A DNA stretch of 64,000 nucleotides from a virus, in the UHGV virus genome UHGV-0236300; one strand, 5' to 3'. The position numbers and the translations under genes were made by a program. The notes under the pieces are model-generated. The model was given only the letters and a program-made list of their open reading frames with translations. It was not told where the DNA came from and made no database searches. The first letter of the stretch is position 1; every line of letters starts with the position of its first letter. Shown piece by piece: positions 26,602 to 37,507 of the stretch.

Positions 26602-27021
26602 ATGAACATTAAATCTGATAATCCGGCATATAGCTTTGATAACGCTTTTTGTCACGGTCCGGCGGCGAAAGGATTCGAAATCGATGGTAAACTAATTATT
26701 GTCAATGTTGACGGGGAAGAGGTTGCAGTATATCCGGTGGCAGACGTTAAAAGCCGTCTACAATGCCGCATAGATGTTACCGCCTATCAGCTTGATCCGG
26801 TCCGGGTAGTTGCCCTGGTCCTGGAAGAAGAAATTAAAGCAATGCACCACAGCAACAAGTTTATTGGTGACGCTCAAGATAATATGCAGGTATGCCGCTA
26901 TAAAGTTAATGAAGTGCTTAAAGAGTACGGCTATAAGGATTTAATGATCAAGCGCGATGAAAAATTCCGCTACCGTAACGACCTGGCAAATCGGATTTTT
27001 GAAATATACGAATCATTATAA
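26602..27021 (+). CDS. hypothetical protein
   Basis: ORF with SD AAGAGGTAAAAA upstream; followed by a terminator. Confidence 0.6.
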   Translation: MNIKSDNPAYSFDNAFCHGPAAKGFEIDGKLIIVNVDGEEVAVYPVADVKSRLQCRIDVTAYQLDPVRVVALVLEEEIKAMHHSNKFIGDAQDNMQVCRYKVNEVLKEYGYKDLMIKRDEKFRYRNDLANRIFEIYESL

Positions 27022-27039
27022 TTTCTTAACTGAATTATC

Positions 27040-27068
27040 AAGGGGCTTAAAGGCCCCTTTCTTTTTGT
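27040..27068 (+). terminator. rho-independent terminator
   Basis: AAGGGGC-TTAAAG-GCCCCTT hairpin followed by TCTTTTTG; closes the plus-strand cassette array. Confidence 0.7.
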
Positions 27069-27526
27069 CTGCTCTTCTCCTACCATAAACGGCCCTACCT
27101 GGCAAGTGGAATAATTGACTAGCCATCAATCCCACATACTGTACAAATATACATGGAAAATAACTATTGCATAATCTTTCATTGTGTGGTAGCAGGGCCA
27201 TTTTTACCCGTTTTCTCTCCCAAAAGTGCACGTAATGCCGCTATTGCACAAATTTTAACCTGATGCACATCTCCAATATCTTGTCAACAACTAAAAATCT
27301 TTATAAGTCATACACTTACACAGCATCGAAAGCGTGTTCTACGCGAAAAATCGAGTATAACTATAGCCGCCAGATCTCAGAATTCACGTACGCACGCCAT
27401 TCTATAGTCTGCAAAGTATTTATTCCAACCACAGAATAACGGAATAGTCAATACCTGCATAAAATAATTATTCGTGTAAACTGCATAACATAAATCAGCT
27501 CAGGTGTCAACATTTTTCGTAAACAG

Positions 27527-28322
27527 TTCGAAATTGTCACGATAAGTTATTATACACAGAGAAATCTTTAGTCGTCTAATGTTTACTGTACATTACTATA
27601 CTGACTGGAATCATTAGATGACTAAGAGAAAGATAAGAAATAATTAATAATGTAATTGTTTTACCTGTAACAATAAGGCAACTATGCAAACGAATGGCAT
27701 GGCGCGACGGAGTCGCGACATAATATAAAAGCAGTAACAATCACCCCCGTGATAGTTTTTCTGCAATCTATTATTCAGATCATAGTTGCCTTGTATTTAG
27801 TTAATCATGACATAACAAGCAAGGCAACTATAGATCTTCTAATAGTTGCCCTGCTTTTATATTATGTCATAGATTGTTATCTTGTTAATTGTTTTCATGC
27901 AAACGAATGTCATGGCTTATCATCTCTGTGTAAACAATTTGGGCGTAAACTATTCAGATGAAAACTATTCAGGCGTAAACAGTCTATGCGTAAACAGTGA
28001 GATATGGAATAGTAACAGCCGTTATTGTGTCATATTGTGTCATTGTGTCAAAGGTAAAAGTGTCAAAAGTGACAATTTTGTCACATTGTGTCAGACAAGT
28101 TTTTCTCCTCTTTGTCAAGTGCCGCATGAAAAATTTACAAACTGGTATGGTAGCATTTTTGCGGCCCTGTTTACATTCAGGAATGTATGTATAATCCTTG
28201 CTGTGTGGGCGTTTAGACGTCTGGACGGTCAGAAGTCAGCAGGTCAATATCTAATCTATTGGTTGCTAACTATATCCCACACAAATAGTAAGAAATATAA
28301 TTGTTATGTGCGTAAACAGTAA
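27527..28322. repeat. iteron-like repeats (core GCGTAAACAGT) in a noncoding region
   Basis: (T/G)CGTAAACAGT at ~27527, ~27974, ~27988, ~28310; GCGTAAACT at ~27944; AAGGCAACTAT and its reverse complement recur at ~27673, ~27783, ~27821, ~27843. Confidence 0.55.
28025..28120. repeat. array of TTGTGTCA-type short repeats
   Basis: TTGTGTCAT x2, TTGTGTCAA, GTGTCAAAAGTGACA, TTGTCACA, TTGTGTCAG, TTGTCAAG within ~95 bp. Confidence 0.55.
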
Positions 28323-28622
28323 CTCATGTTATCAATCCCTGTATGTATCGCCAGTGGTGCGCATAATGGGTATTATGTTAAATTGCCCGTAATGATAACC
28401 ATTCTCACAATGATAGGTATTCTCATTCATCCCCACAAGATAGATTGCAAATGTTGTGCCACTGTGTGAACGGCCTCACCTATTAATTTGCCTCACTGCC
28501 TCGATATTTGAGAATTATTATAAAAAATGAGAAGTATTCCCATTCCGTCCGCCTGGCAGCACTCCTGTAGGACAAGCACAACATCGGGGTATAACTGGAC
28601 CTGTTCAGATATTTCTGGCTGA

Positions 28623-29162
28623 CTCTTCAGGCCTGTGTGGGAAAAGCCAACCTCTCCGGCGGCGGGGAGGGGGGTCAATTAAAAAATTTACGTGGTGTAT
28701 GAAGCGCTCTTCAGGCAAGGTGTGTATTATGGGATGAAACCCTCTTCAGGTGATGATATTTGTGGGGGGATATTTGCTGGAAAGCCAGATATGACGGGGC
28801 TCCCGGCGGGGATGGGGTAGTACAGACAGGGAAAATGTGGGGATGTGGTGGGAGTAAATTGATCAAGTAGGTAGGATATGGAATATGTTACAAGTATGTT
28901 AAATATAGAGGTAGGATATTTGTGAGATTTGTGTGTAAAATCAAAGACTTAGGTGGTGTTGTGGTATTTTCTATAAATAATTCAAGTTTAATAGGTGATA
29001 TTTGTCTCCATCCACTTTGTGTGGTAAACAGCTCCTAATTGAATTGGTTTACAAGTGTATATAAAGTATACAAATTAAAGATATAAGAAACCCCCCTCCC
29101 CCTTCGGCTACCATTCACCTTTTCCTCTGACTGGTACTTAAACACTTATTCAGACTCTTCAG
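28623..29162. repeat. dispersed 9-mer CTCTTCAGG (4 copies here, 5th at ~29814)
   Basis: Exact 9-mer at ~28623, ~28707, ~28742, ~29154 and ~29814; about 0.5 copies expected by chance in 64 kb. Confidence 0.55.
28664..29101. repeat. 12-bp G-rich inverted repeat pair (GGGGAGGGGGGT / ACCCCCCTCCCC) flanking a GT-skewed segment
   Basis: Perfect reverse complements at ~28664-28675 and ~29090-29101; the intervening plus strand is almost devoid of C and holds G-runs. Confidence 0.5.
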
Positions 29163-29526
29163 GTTATCACCCCTATACTATATGGCAGTGACTGGTGTCC
29201 TCCGGCCCCTCTTTCGCCACCCGTCCGCTTCGCCATGCTAATGCCATAGCCAAAGGTTCGGTTGTTCACCCTGTTCACTCAGGTGTATCTCCATACCCCT
29301 TCAAACCGAAGAGAACAGAAAACCCGAATTACTCGGTAAAAGAAAAGAGAAGAACTTAATTTTATCAAGATAGGCAAGAATGTCAAGGGATGACTGCTCA
29401 CTAAACAAGCAAACAGTCATGTGTGGTAGGTAAGTAACTGGGTTGGTAGGAAATTTAGTTGGAAGATGTTATAGGTGCCTCCAGAACCTTAGCTGGGCAG
29501 CTAAACCTGCAAAGCAGACTTGTGTG

Positions 29527-33562: not shown

Positions 33563-33958
33563 TTACTGAAACAGTGCAGATAAATTACCTTCTGGTGGGA
33601 ACTTATCTGCCAGGAATGGGGTTAGAACAGTGGCCTTCTGAAGATCTGGGGTCCACTCGTTGTTCAGAACATCCCAGTAATACGCAATGTTGCTATGTGG
33701 GTGCCGCATTACGAACTTTTTCCCTTCGTAGTCAGTTGAAACCTCTACAGAAGAAATAACAACAGAATCTTCAAGGGTTTCTTCATAGAAAGATCCACCC
33801 TCAAATTTCCAACGAGATGCAAGAGCTCCTGCCTTGAACGCTGCAGATAACGGACTGTCTGCAAGAACATACATTTCTTGCACTCTGTCACTGCGATCTT
33901 TGCTTCTTACGTTGTATACAGTATCCGAGCTATACTCAACACGGTATAGACTTACCAT
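33563..33958 (-). CDS. hypothetical protein (paralog family C)
   Basis: Paralogous to 35766..36164 (HP(D/H)S...YW...WTP motif). Confidence 0.55.
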   Translation of the reverse strand: MVSLYRVEYSSDTVYNVRSKDRSDRVQEMYVLADSPLSAAFKAGALASRWKFEGGSFYEETLEDSVVISSVEVSTDYEGKKFVMRHPHSNIAYYWDVLNNEWTPDLQKATVLTPFLADKFPPEGNLSALFQ

Positions 33959-34317
33959 TACCGAGCCTCCTCAATAACTTCCACATCTGAACCCACCACA
34001 AATGCAAAAGGGCAGGTTTCATGAAAGATATCCGGATCTCCACCAAGCTTGCTAACTATCTCTCCACCACTAATAAACACAAGCTCACCAATATTCATCA
34101 GATTGCTAAAATAGTAGCCATAATGATTGAAGAATGCAGCTGGGTCAGGTAGACTGGTGGCCTCAAGCTCTACATTGCTTGAGATCACTTTCTTATCATA
34201 CCCTCTCGCCTTTTGAGATGCAAGATCTGCAGAGTCTTCAGGAGACCGGAGATGCACAGGAATTGTTTCACCAATAAAGCGTACTTTCATATTCTTACCC
34301 CACAACCATAGCTTCAA
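33958..34317 (-). CDS. hypothetical protein (possible family A relative)
   Basis: C-terminal FVVGSDVEVIEE resembles family A tails; start may be an internal ATG. Confidence 0.5.
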   Translation of the reverse strand: MKLWLWGKNMKVRFIGETIPVHLRSPEDSADLASQKARGYDKKVISSNVELEATSLPDPAAFFNHYGYYFSNLMNIGELVFISGGEIVSKLGGDPDIFHETCPFAFVVGSDVEVIEEAR

Positions 34318-34558
34318 AAGGTGTCATAAACGAATAAACAGCATCATCATCTGCTTCAGGGAATGCCCCCAAAGACTTTATGTCTGATCCCTTGACAAAT
34401 ACAAGGTTTTGATCAAAAGCTTCTTGTGGATCAATCCGATACATATCTCGTAGGATACCACTTACCTCCTCATCAAGAGGCGAGTATGCTGTGCACGTTT
34501 TTCCAATCAAGCTTTGAGAATCAGGGTATCCACCTGAAGTTTTAAAATAAACAATCAT
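34295..34558 (-). CDS. hypothetical protein (paralog family A)
   Basis: LVFVKGSDIKSLGAFPE resembles VFILGSDLIAAGAPE of 36177..36431. Confidence 0.5.
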   Translation of the reverse strand: MIVYFKTSGGYPDSQSLIGKTCTAYSPLDEEVSGILRDMYRIDPQEAFDQNLVFVKGSDIKSLGAFPEADDDAVYSFMTPFEAMVVG

Positions 34559-34650
34559 ATAGTATCACCTCTGGTAAGAGATGGGGATTCCTTTCCCACA
34601 AATAATTACAAACCTTTCTTGTCGAGGAAAGTATGCTAACCCAAGTAGGA

Positions 34651-34920
34651 TTACTCTTCTACAACCTCATACACATCCGGAGTTACAATCAACTCTTCTC
34701 CGTTACCTGGTGCAACAAACACTACCAAACCTTCCGGTGTGTGCTTTTTAGCCATCTCGATGACATCTTCTCGCAGAGCTGGCTCCATCAGATCAAAACC
34801 TTCACCCAGAGCATCACGAACCACCTTCATGTAGTCAACTGGTTGTGCTTCAACGATCATGCCTTCAACCAGTCCACAGTTTTTGTCTGCCAGCTCAGTT
34901 TGGAATAATTTAATTTTCAT
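34651..34920 (-). CDS. hypothetical acidic protein (paralog family B)
   Basis: MKIKL start and YEVVEE end shared with family B. Confidence 0.55.
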   Translation of the reverse strand: MKIKLFQTELADKNCGLVEGMIVEAQPVDYMKVVRDALGEGFDLMEPALREDVIEMAKKHTPEGLVVFVAPGNGEELIVTPDVYEVVEE

Positions 34921-35063
34921 TTAGAGGTCTCCTCAATTATTTGATATTAATAGCCGTAACCTAACACATTAACTACAACTGCGATTGCAAACATAATTTC
35001 AAAGCATGCAATCTCTACATTTGGGACTAATTTCTTAATCATGCCCATTGTAGCACCTCAATC

Positions 35064-35375
35064 TCAAAAGTCAATCTTTACTTTACCTTTTCCCTTACCT
35101 TTCTTTCCACCGCATTTAGCCAACTGGCGTGCTGCAACATCCACCATACGGTCAGTTGCCTCGTAAGCATCGCTACCTTTAGCTTTGGCGATAACTTCTT
35201 TCCCAGAATTGTCAAAAATGAAAGCCATAACTTCCTGGTGATCATTTTCAACTTTTACACTCACACGTGCATAGTTGGCAGAGGGGTGCAAACGCTCCAG
35301 CTTGGACATTTTGTGGGAAATGAAAGACACCATACCTTCAGTGATCTCTACGTTGCCAGTGATTTCAATCTGCAT
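35064..35375 (-). CDS. hpf: ribosome hibernation promoting factor / RaiA-like protein
   Basis: MQIEITGNVEITEGM...VSVKVEN...AKAKGSDAYEATDRMVDVAARQLAK parallels E. coli HPF MQLNITGNNVEITEAL...; basic C-terminal tail. Confidence 0.8.
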   Translation of the reverse strand: MQIEITGNVEITEGMVSFISHKMSKLERLHPSANYARVSVKVENDHQEVMAFIFDNSGKEVIAKAKGSDAYEATDRMVDVAARQLAKCGGKKGKGKGKVKIDF

Positions 35376-35422
35376 AACGTGCTCCTTTTAAAGAAGAGGG
35401 AACCAAACCCTCTTTGAAAATA

Positions 35423-35451
35423 ATGATACTAAAGATCAAATGTTGTGTCAA
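35423..35451 (-). promoter_or_regulatory. hpf: sigma70 promoter (minus strand, TTGACA-N17-TATCAT) with a 5'-UTR hairpin
   Basis: Minus-strand TTGACA at 35451-35446, TATCAT at 35428-35423; hairpin AGAGGG-N7-CCCTCT (35395-35413) then SD AAGGAG before the hpf ATG. Confidence 0.5.
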
Positions 35452-35457
35452 CAGTTT

Positions 35458-35748
35458 TTACAGCTTGTCGTCGATAGTTTTTAAAATATCCACTGCAAGA
35501 TCTGCCATTTTACGAACATACTCTGCAAACTCAACAGGATCCTTGATCAATGAGTTCACAGGGTCATACCCTAAAGCGTTTAAAATGGCTACAGCATCCA
35601 CAACCTTCTCATCATTTGCGAAGATCTCACCGTCAAACTTGTAAGTCCATTTTGAGTCAATCTTGGCATGGCAGGATTGGTCCATGCTTATTACACCATC
35701 TTTTTTAAACGATTCGGTGTTATCAGTATCCAAAACTAAATCCATCAT
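35458..35748 (-). CDS. hypothetical protein
   Basis: ORF; no motif. Confidence 0.5.
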   Translation of the reverse strand: MMDLVLDTDNTESFKKDGVISMDQSCHAKIDSKWTYKFDGEIFANDEKVVDAVAILNALGYDPVNSLIKDPVEFAEYVRKMADLAVDILKTIDDKL

Positions 35749-35765
35749 GTAAGTACCCCACTATT

Positions 35766-36164
35766 TCAGCTTATCTTTTCTTCAACAACCCCGTAGCTCG
35801 GGGCAGAGTCAAGAGCTTTCTGGTTTAAAAGTGGTGTAGCAGAATCTGCAAACGGTGTCCAGGTTTTTGTTCTGGCATTCCAGTAATGCTTTACTCTGGA
35901 ATCTGGATGCACTATAACAAAAACTTTTTCACTTGTCAACACATTAATTTCTTCTACACCCTTGCTGATAATCTCTCCGTCATAGCCACCAGTCTGGTAT
36001 CCTTCGTACCAGGTTCTTGCATAGGCATAGCCAGCCTGCCAGCATGCAGCCTCCTCCGAGGTGGAGACTACGTAGAAGTCTTTCTCAAATTCGGGGATAC
36101 GCCCTTGCTTTACGCTCCAAGCTCCGCGAATTTTCATTGTAACTTTGAACAGTTTATTTTTCAC
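35766..36164 (-). CDS. hypothetical protein (paralog family C)
   Basis: Paralogous to 33563..33958. Confidence 0.55.
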   Translation of the reverse strand: MKNKLFKVTMKIRGAWSVKQGRIPEFEKDFYVVSTSEEAACWQAGYAYARTWYEGYQTGGYDGEIISKGVEEINVLTSEKVFVIVHPDSRVKHYWNARTKTWTPFADSATPLLNQKALDSAPSYGVVEEKIS

Positions 36165-36176
36165 AACAGTTCCCCA

Positions 36177-36431
36177 TCACAGCTCTAAAATATCTGCATC
36201 TGACCCTGTCCCAAAGGCATAATACGAGTCCTCTCCGAAATAATATTCCGGGGCACCAGCCGCGATCAGGTCTGATCCCAAGATGAACACCACATTGTGG
36301 CCTACATGGCTGTGATTTTGCCGCACAGGATCGTCCCACGGCAACCCTTCGAAGTATACAGCAGGTACTACCTTTCCTTTCAGGAAGGATTGTCCCAAGT
36401 AGACGTTAGAGTCAAGAATTTTAACCTTCAT
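36177..36431 (-). CDS. hypothetical protein (paralog family A)
   Basis: MKVKILD... and GSDLIAAGAPE shared with 36421..36645 and 40069..40302. Confidence 0.55.
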   Translation of the reverse strand: MKVKILDSNVYLGQSFLKGKVVPAVYFEGLPWDDPVRQNHSHVGHNVVFILGSDLIAAGAPEYYFGEDSYYAFGTGSDADILEL

Positions 36432-36645
36432 GATCGTCCTCCACTATCTCCACATCCTCTCCTAGGGCAAAGTTGTAGGTCCACTGACTGTCAAAGCATT
36501 CCTGGGATGCACCAGCGGCAATAAGATCTGCACCTTTTATTTTTAAAAGGTCAGGATAATCTTCGTTAGGGATAGCGGTAAACACTTTCCCCACTAAGGG
36601 CTCCTGACCAATATAGAAGCTTGAATCTAAAACTTTAACTTTCAT
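36421..36645 (-). CDS. hypothetical protein (paralog family A)
   Basis: MKVKVLD... and GADLIAAGAS motif. Confidence 0.55.
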   Translation of the reverse strand: MKVKVLDSSFYIGQEPLVGKVFTAIPNEDYPDLLKIKGADLIAAGASQECFDSQWTYNFALGEDVEIVEDDHEG

Positions 36646-36929
36646 CAGCGGTCTCCATCGGGCGGTTGTGGAACGTAAACACTGTTACGAATCTCGTCAG
36701 CAGTATAGTAACAAGTTTTCCCCTCTCTGTCTCTGGCAGCAATGTATTCAGCTATACCAATAAGTGCCATAGCCTTGGTTGCGTATCTCTTAAGCTCGTT
36801 AGCTCCCCAGCAAAATCTCTGCCAAAACGGTATGAAACCGAATAGGTACACTTTCTGTTTCACTATCCAATAAGTTCCTTTACAGATCACTTTAAACTCT
36901 GCAGCACTATTGCTAACACCATTGCTCAT
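36645..36929 (-). CDS. hypothetical protein
   Basis: ORF coupled to its neighbours. Confidence 0.45.
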   Translation of the reverse strand: MSNGVSNSAAEFKVICKGTYWIVKQKVYLFGFIPFWQRFCWGANELKRYATKAMALIGIAEYIAARDREGKTCYYTADEIRNSVYVPQPPDGDR

Positions 36930-36941
36930 TATCTTCTCCTT

Positions 36942-37226
36942 TTATTTTTCTGGATTTGGCAGATATTGCACATTGGCAGGAGGAACACCGGATAGCTCCC
37001 AAACAACCATAGTGCTGTACCCTGGCACACTTCTAACATTTAAAAGAGTAGGAGCACCAACACATTTAAACTTCCTTTTCCCAAATCCGTTCTCCATCAT
37101 AACCCAGTATCCGGTATCCTGATCACCGGGAATTTGTGTTCCATCATCGTCCACCCAGCGGACGGTCCATTTCGATACAGCAACAGCCTGGTATTTAAAC
37201 TTTTTAAACCACTCGAACAGTTTCAT
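36942..37226 (-). CDS. hypothetical protein
   Basis: ORF; no motif. Confidence 0.45.
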   Translation of the reverse strand: MKLFEWFKKFKYQAVAVSKWTVRWVDDDGTQIPGDQDTGYWVMMENGFGKRKFKCVGAPTLLNVRSVPGYSTMVVWELSGVPPANVQYLPNPEK

Positions 37227-37321
37227 AATTCAGCCTCGCATAGCCATAATAACTATAAACAGACAAAGAATGAATCCGAATGCCACGCCACCCATAAACG
37301 TTAATATTGATGCGACCATAA

Positions 37322-37507
37322 TCAATCAGCCTCGTTTGGCAGCTCTTCCATTTTGACATACCGGAAAGTGTTGCCGTAATAGTTGATCCATGACATCAGC
37401 TCACTTTCTTGCTCTTCCTCTGGGATGGACTCTCGAACGCTGACAAGTTTTAAGAAAACCCAATCACAATCCACCCCCATCCTACCAGACAGACAATAGT
37501 GCTTCAT
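37322..37507 (-). CDS. hypothetical protein
   Basis: Short ORF. Confidence 0.4.
   Translation of the reverse strand: MKHYCLSGRMGVDCDWVFLKLVSVRESIPEEEQESELMSWINYYGNTFRYVKMEELPNEAD

Follow-up and report, generated by a model that had tools for sequence, protein, structure and literature searches.

An HPF-like gene of rV5-type coliphages is a maintained copy of a bacterial ribosome hibernation factor with its own host-type promoter

The UHGV virus genome UHGV-0236300, of which a stretch of 64,000 nucleotides (hereafter the window) was analysed, is an rV5-type Vequintavirus and carries a true phage copy of HPF, the bacterial ribosome hibernation factor, which selection has maintained and which has a host-type promoter of its own. 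The coding sequence lies on the minus strand at 35064–35375, begins with ATG and, stop codon included, specifies a protein of 103 aa (MQIEITGNVEITEGMVSFISHKMSKLERLHPSANYARVSVKVENDHQEVMAFIFDNSGKEVIAKAKGSDAYEATDRMVDVAARQLAKCGGKKGKGKGKVKIDF), of which residues 1–89 form the folded core. Direct reading places a Shine-Dalgarno sequence, AAGGAG (35382–35387, minus strand), 6 nt 5′ of the ATG, where a ribosome-binding site is also annotated in phage Murica. The region is 92–98% identical to approximately 120 rV5-type genomes, and the HPF protein is 95–100% identical in 117 of the 119 phage records that hold the gene. In rV5 itself the gene has been annotated since 2006 and was published in 2019, so that its presence was already known. 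GenBank record DQ832317 lists it as ORF 144 (ABI79209), a "sigma 54 modulation factor", and the site upstream as "Sigma70-type promoter; P144", and other records name it hpf, ribosome hibernation factor or RaiA. In their list of ribosomal proteins encoded by viruses, Mizuno et al. (2019; PMC6375957) included the HPF of rV5, which they grouped with gammaproteobacterial sequences, and Mathieu et al. (2020; PMC6969025) reported hpf in five more rV5-type isolates, "as already described". The window copy shares with rV5 HPF 100% identity over 103 aa, matching flanking genes and the P144 promoter, and differs in being two residues shorter at its end. A search of the literature found no later functional study of any phage HPF. 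An earlier note on this DNA, made from the sequence alone, had identified the gene as HPF/RaiA-like, which as such goes no further than existing annotation and literature; what we add is evidence that the core is under strong purifying selection, a variable tail prone to indels, a natural deletion that could supply a ready comparison strain, and the recognition that public records apply the labels RaiA, "sigma 54 modulation factor" and "protease La" loosely or wrongly.

The protein scored above the family thresholds of both Pfam PF02482 (E = 1.7e-12; 48.4 bits, cut-off 23.7) and TIGR00741 (46.0 bits, cut-off 40.9), and it matched the E. coli HPF structures 2rql/4v8h with residues 1–89 aligned to 1–89 (E = 5e-12). 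BLASTP against E. coli HPF gave 38 identities over 88 positions (43%) in a collinear alignment with two 1-residue gaps, so the earlier description of a 103-aa member of the HPF/RaiA family, near-collinear with E. coli HPF, was correct on both counts. A subgroup of relatives comprising Murica and A6-1 (L010:400-700, L011:400-721) carries one extra Asn codon, reading ITGNNVEITE in place of ITGNVEITE, which restores the exact spacing of E. coli HPF; the leader hairpin is altered in the same subgroup. As judged from sequence comparison, the phage protein is nearer to HPF than to RaiA: it scored 55.9 bits with the NCBIfam model for HPF (NF007780) and 17.7 bits with that for RaiA (NF007654), and its identity to E. 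coli RaiA is 25% compared with 43% to E. coli HPF (of the two comparison sequences, that of HPF agrees with the PDB alignment, and both are full-length PF02482 members). Its size class, which lacks the C-terminal dimerisation domain, and its best-hit status agree with the short HPF subfamily, which is further marked by the conversion of RMF-induced 90S to 100S. Because neither equivalog cut-off was reached (125 bits for enterobacterial HPF, 158 for RaiA/YfiA) and the match to HPF was the stronger, the label "RaiA", common in database records, is loose at subfamily level. The nearest non-phage relatives in a HMMER scan of 1.8 billion proteins were enterobacterial-type HPFs with 38–45% identity; a word-indexed protein search returned six relatives only, all from phages, and it was the full HMMER scan that reached the bacterial HPFs. 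Enterobacterial HPFs are strongly conserved (95% identity between E. coli and Salmonella), and since the phage copy shows 43% identity and half the Pfam score of E. coli HPF (48 versus 99 bits), it must have diverged greatly since capture. The "relatively recent" transfer proposed by Mizuno et al. is taken with caution.

Since IMG/VR yielded two loci only, comparisons drew on GenBank phage records and Logan/ENA contigs. Across core codons 1–89 the window and rV5 differ by 12 synonymous and no non-synonymous changes, and the ratio of non-synonymous to synonymous substitution rates (dN/dS) in five within-group comparisons was 0.02–0.07; judged by these codon differences, the core is under strong purifying selection. 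A sister lineage (P0004; loci L005–L008), represented by metagenomic assemblies only, has the gene in the same place; the proteins are 64% identical, a value in the middle of the range for neighbouring genes between the window and that lineage (28–85%).

The Lys/Gly-rich tail ascribed to the protein by the earlier note is present (residues 88–103, KCGGKKGKGKGKVKIDF; 35067–35114, minus strand). It is encoded by an AAAGG/GGGG-rich tract prone to 1-nt indels, and relatives carry the alternatives KCGGKKGKGKAK, KCGRKKGKGERQSKD or ...VKIDFGE through a gain or loss of 1 nt or a point change there, although part of these 1-nt indels could be sequencing errors. In the tract AAGGGGAAAGG, one additional G in APCEc02 produces the tail KCGRKKGKGERQSKD, and the loss of 1 nt in Murica, whose version of HPF is only 99 aa long, produces KCGGKKGKGKAK; in the window copy a G-to-T change (GGA to TGA) removes the final Gly-Glu present in rV5. 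In the sister lineage the tail is unrelated and also basic, and relatives include a truncated form of 58 aa. Across the sequences compared the tail is thus conserved neither in sequence nor in length, yet every variant remains basic. It stands where E. coli HPF, whose residues 87–95 contact the ribosome (bioRxiv 2025.10.07.680626), has its Lys-rich C-terminus (KHKDKLKQH), and extends 8 residues beyond the length of the E. coli protein.

An AlphaFold2 (AF2) model built on an 18-sequence alignment reached a mean predicted local distance difference test score (pLDDT) of 84.2, replacing a poor single-sequence model (pLDDT 55). Strands were predicted at residues 2–7, 33–43, 46–55 and 60–67 and helices at 13–29 and 70–89, and residues 91–103 were predicted to be disordered (pLDDT < 50). 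The earlier note had named a prediction other than the HPF fold as grounds for abandoning its assignment; the model keeps the HPF fold. In enterobacterial and Pseudomonas HPF–70S structures, HPF-family proteins obstruct the A site as well as the P site, and contacts with 16S rRNA, uS7 and uS9 involve Y30, T53, D75 and R83, positions 80, 83, 87, 89, 91 and 93 of helix 2, and further K26, R33, E44, N57 and H95 (bioRxiv 2025.10.07.680626). Mapped through the alignment, the phage protein keeps K26, E44, N57, D75, R83, K87 and K91, whereas it has L for Y30, S for R33, F for T53, V for K80 and G for both K89 and K93. In both phage clades five of these contacts are gone (L at 30, S at 33, F or L at 53, V or T at 80, G or S at 89), and lysines 92, 94, 96, 98 and 100 partly make up for the lost residues. 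The ribosome-contact surface is thus, by this mapping, partly retained, with about half of the known 16S-contact residues in place, a degree of retention compatible both with ribosome binding and with its loss. Of 45 columns class-conserved among 15 bacterial homologues, 35 (78%) are kept in the phage protein, compared with 70–96% for the bacterial homologues themselves when each was left out in turn, a comparison that is lenient because the 15 were picked by their similarity to the phage protein.

The promoter described by the earlier note, TTGACA-N17-TATCAT, lies at 35423–35451 on the minus strand, agrees with the sigma-70 consensus at 11 of 12 positions and corresponds to P144 of rV5; PhagePromoter predicts the same site in phage Gotham, and the −35 hexamer is kept in all relatives, the 64%-identity clade included. 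Where 1.7 matches to the pattern TTGACA-N16-18-TAWNNT would be expected, the window has 23, all of them on the local coding strand: plus up to 26.5 kb, minus from 29.4 kb. The HPF promoter is therefore more than a chance match, and with 23 such sites in the window the possession of its own promoter is ordinary in this genome. In rV5, Kropinski et al. (2013; PMC3606486) described 33 sigma-70 promoters and a block of 88 mainly small open reading frames (ORFs) into which the gene falls. The placement of the gene in an early host-takeover block, as the earlier note had it, stands in so far as the gene belongs to a long run of small genes with host-type promoters; a takeover role in the sense of host shut-off found no support.

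Between the promoter and the Shine-Dalgarno sequence lies the leader hairpin that had also been noted, a 7-bp stem-loop (AAGAGGG-UUUGGUU-CCCUCUU; 35394–35414, minus strand; dG −11.3 kcal/mol) beginning approximately 2–3 nt after the predicted transcript start. Though present, it is unexceptional, with a z-score of −1.2 and 22 of 200 shuffled sequences folding equally well, and its 5′ arm, AAGAGGG, looks like a Shine-Dalgarno sequence. The hairpin is kept with minor changes in close rV5-type relatives and is weaker in the Murica subgroup; in the sister clade (L005/L007) there is none, and the aligned GAGGG is the ribosome-binding site. Nothing singles the hairpin out, and a 5′-terminal stem-loop that stabilizes the transcript is a reasonable guess. 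An intrinsic terminator of the upstream gene was rejected given its location 3′ of the promoter, its poor U-tract and the lack of a call in a terminator scan, as was a conserved regulatory element given the z-score, the lack of compensatory changes and its absence from the sister clade. A second promoter-like sequence, TTGACT-N16-TACAAT (35047–35074, minus strand; 10 of 12 consensus positions, with TG before the −10), overlaps the last codons and stop of the HPF gene and precedes the ORF at 34947–35048. For Gotham, PhagePromoter calls a promoter at this position, and the sequence is kept in rV5-type relatives and absent in L005. The HPF codons for I-D-F spell its −35 hexamer, TTGACT, and the conservation of these codons at the DNA level may be a consequence of this overlap.

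What the protein does is a separate question, and the explanation that we favour, tentatively and with somewhat less than an even chance of being right, is that of an hpf-like accessory factor that binds idle, vacant host ribosomes weakly and salt-sensitively and is of conditional benefit to the phage. An ancestor of the phage group would have captured a short (approximately 95-aa) gammaproteobacterial HPF, which would have diverged strongly before coming under purifying selection. Host RNA polymerase would transcribe the gene from the sigma-70 promoter P144, probably early in infection, and the product is predicted to keep the HPF fold with a longer, disordered Lys/Gly tail in place of the Lys-rich C-terminus of HPF. 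We postulate that this protein binds vacant, non-translating host 30S/70S particles in the decoding channel, reversibly and in a salt-sensitive manner, and that it would thereby park or protect idle ribosomes in the form of 70S monomers, in the manner of RaiA, without driving the formation of RMF-dependent 100S dimers. The gene would be useful under certain conditions, for example in slow-growing or starved hosts, and is not essential. In favour of this explanation stand the closer match to HPF than to RaiA, the enterobacterial-type HPFs as nearest non-phage relatives, the purifying selection on the core, the retention of the gene in the same place in the sister clade, the contact residues and class-conserved columns that are kept, the basic character of all tail variants and the promoter. 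Family membership, fold, promoter, selection and dispensability are borne out by the sequence data; ribosome binding, the timing of expression and the benefit to the phage are inferred.

The principal evidence that weighs against this explanation comes from the one published experiment, which amounts to a single run of the 70S/100S profile check that the earlier note had proposed. Mizuno et al. (2019; PMC6375957) expressed rV5 HPF from pBAD24 in E. coli with 1 mM arabinose and growth to an optical density at 600 nm (OD600) of 1; the 70S profile was normal, 100S was unchanged, and HPF peptides were present in the crude extract but absent from the 70S/100S fractions. The cells were late-exponential, with little 100S present, and ribosomes were pelleted through 500 mM NH4Cl, conditions unfavourable to the binding of cellular hibernation factors as well. 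Because most ribosomes are translating at an OD600 of 1 and because of the salt wash, both of which the authors themselves named as caveats, the negative result is not decisive on binding and weakens our explanation without refuting it. The same side of the balance holds the shortfall against the enterobacterial HPF equivalog, the halved Pfam score, the changed contact residues, including those lost in both phage clades, and the lack of any report on Vequintavirus expression timing in the literature searched. It also holds a natural deletion of 2,159 bp, equivalent to window positions 35229–37387, in a 132-kb metagenomic relative (L013:1-1371) and similar contigs. This deletion takes out the HPF promoter, codons 1–49 and approximately eight upstream small genes, and joins the ORF at 37322–37507 to the HPF remnant out of frame; as a natural lineage has done without the promoter and codons 1–49, the gene is dispensable.

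Comparison with the cellular proteins points to similarities and differences of the same kind. With E. coli short HPF (YhbH; PDB 2rql, 4v8h, 6h4n) the phage protein has K26, D75, R83, K87 and K91 in common; it differs in lacking Y30, R33, T53, K80 and K89, in its longer Gly/Lys-rich tail, in having gone undetected on ribosomes and left 100S unaffected in the published test, and in being expressed from a phage sigma-70 promoter, whereas the E. coli gene lies in the rpoN operon. With E. coli RaiA (YfiA, protein Y) it shares the fold, would share the binding site, and has a C-terminal extension beyond HPF length, which in RaiA points to the RMF site. The tails differ, that of the phage protein being basic and Gly-rich and that of RaiA ending in an acidic stretch.

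Alternatively, the protein might fill the HPF/RaiA site, or its tail might block the RMF site, to prevent the formation of host 100S dimers; such an occupant would depart readily, leaving ribosomes free for phage mRNAs and countering dormancy induced by starvation or defence. We regard this as unlikely, if the strongest of the alternatives. Mizuno et al. (PMC6375957) suggested it for viral HPF, and the weak, salt-labile association implied by their negative pull-down would suit an easily displaced occupant. A review reports induction of RMF in DRT2 defence, a conceivable selective pressure. The 8 additional residues of the phage tail relative to E. coli HPF recall RaiA, in which the longer tail heads to the RMF site; the phage tail, however, varies in sequence and length (99 aa in Murica), and this lack of conservation makes a mechanism that depends on it doubtful. 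In the published test 100S was unaffected, though with little 100S present under the conditions used. A still less probable possibility is that phage HPF has been retooled as a transient, salt-labile occupant of the decoding channel that serves as an anti-dormancy factor and not as a hibernation factor and would defeat ribosome-directed defence or a hibernation or dormancy forced on the infected cell, for example by blocking RMF/HPF-driven 100S formation brought on by starvation or abortive infection or by shielding rRNA from defence nucleases.

At a similarly low level of confidence, the HPF fold may have taken on a new function, losing stable ribosome binding in favour of another ligand, for instance a different RNA, a host protein or a nucleotide signal. 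The negative association test, the loss of contact residues in both phage clades and the drop to 43% identity, set against 95% between E. coli and Salmonella and followed by tight constraint, are all consistent with this. Other dsRBD-like phage proteins provide a parallel, among them the anti-CBASS nucleotide sponge Acb4 of phage SPO1 (PF13876); it too is small, with an alpha/beta dsRBD-like fold of distant similarity, and its authors pointed out a resemblance to the HPF structure 4HEI. As a family assignment for the protein in the window, an Acb4-type sponge was rejected, with no PF13876 match and a low fold score.

A role in host translation shut-off, in which early expression would inactivate host ribosomes and which the earlier note had raised as silencing of host ribosomes, appears improbable. 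The host-type promoter, the position within a block of small, presumably early genes and the occlusion of the A and P sites by HPF-family proteins would fit such a role, but cells expressing the protein reached an OD600 of 1 in 1 mM arabinose with normal 70S profiles, and the gene is dispensable. Moreover, to go by the binding site, an HPF-type factor binds only where tRNA and mRNA are absent and so cannot tell host from phage translation, and it would block synthesis of phage proteins too. Least probable is a functionless passenger drifting in an accessory region: the natural 2,159-bp deletion, the variable tail, frameshifted in some relatives, the truncated 58-aa form and the negative ribosome test could be read in this way, but they are outweighed by a dN/dS of 0.02–0.07 with many synonymous changes, by the presence of the gene in 119 phage records (117 at 95–100% identity) and intact in the 64%-identity sister clade, and by a promoter −35 hexamer kept throughout.

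Genes for components of the translation machinery are a recognized, poorly understood class of phage-borne genes. If the protein does act on ribosomes, as in the explanation that we favour, a lytic coliphage would be managing the idle ribosome pool of its host, which would matter for how phages grow on hosts that are starved or in stationary phase and for therapeutic and biocontrol uses of rV5-type phages. HPF-like proteins of the jumbo phages Cronobacter GAP32, Escherichia PBECO4 and Xanthomonas XaC1 are likewise phage-borne members of the fold or family, but they share only 18–34% identity with the protein in the window and belong to unrelated genomes, which argues for separate acquisitions in rV5-type and jumbo phages; Mizuno et al. 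(PMC6375957) placed the HPF of GAP32 near Firmicutes sequences.

Public annotations around the gene are inconsistent. In APCEc02, A6-1, S127 BCL3, ECP26 and ECP32, the label "sigma 54 modulation factor" is carried by a neighbouring 89-aa ORF without a Pfam match (34651–34920 in the window, minus strand), and the adjoining true HPF gene is called hypothetical; in bov10K2 and the NWU phages, the HPF gene is labelled "ATP-dependent protease La type I". The shifted "sigma 54 modulation factor" labels and the "protease La" labels are annotation slips. Eighteen "Campylobacter phage" records (MG0656xx; host given as Campylobacter jejuni) have 94–95% DNA identity to window positions 34000–37000 and an HPF 97–100% identical, and their host assignment looks doubtful.

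Directly 3′ of the HPF gene, a 33-aa hydrophobic ORF (MGMIKKLVPNVEIACFEIMFAIAVVVNVLGYGY; 34947–35048, minus strand) corresponds to ORF 145 in rV5 and is missing from the sister clade of 64% identity. Small genes on either side of HPF fall into paralogous sets, none with a Pfam match: ORFs of 131 and 132 aa (33563–33958 and 35766–36164, minus strand) match one and the same gene of L005, and ORFs of 84, 74 and 87 aa (34295–34558, 36177–36431 and 36421–36645, minus strand) cross-match each other's counterparts. Scanning the entire window for tRNAs and Rfam families returned no match. Where the plus- and minus-strand transcription blocks converge, approximately 2.4 kb (27000–29400) are without long ATG-initiated ORFs and correspond by offset to the "non-coding" region 104013–106618 of rV5 (Kropinski et al., 2013; PMC3606486). 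This region is possibly a replication origin; it contains iteron-like copies of GCGTAAAC at 27518 and 27929–27995, a perfect 18-nt inverted repeat (27717–27734 and 27851–27868) and a dip in GC content to 0.34.
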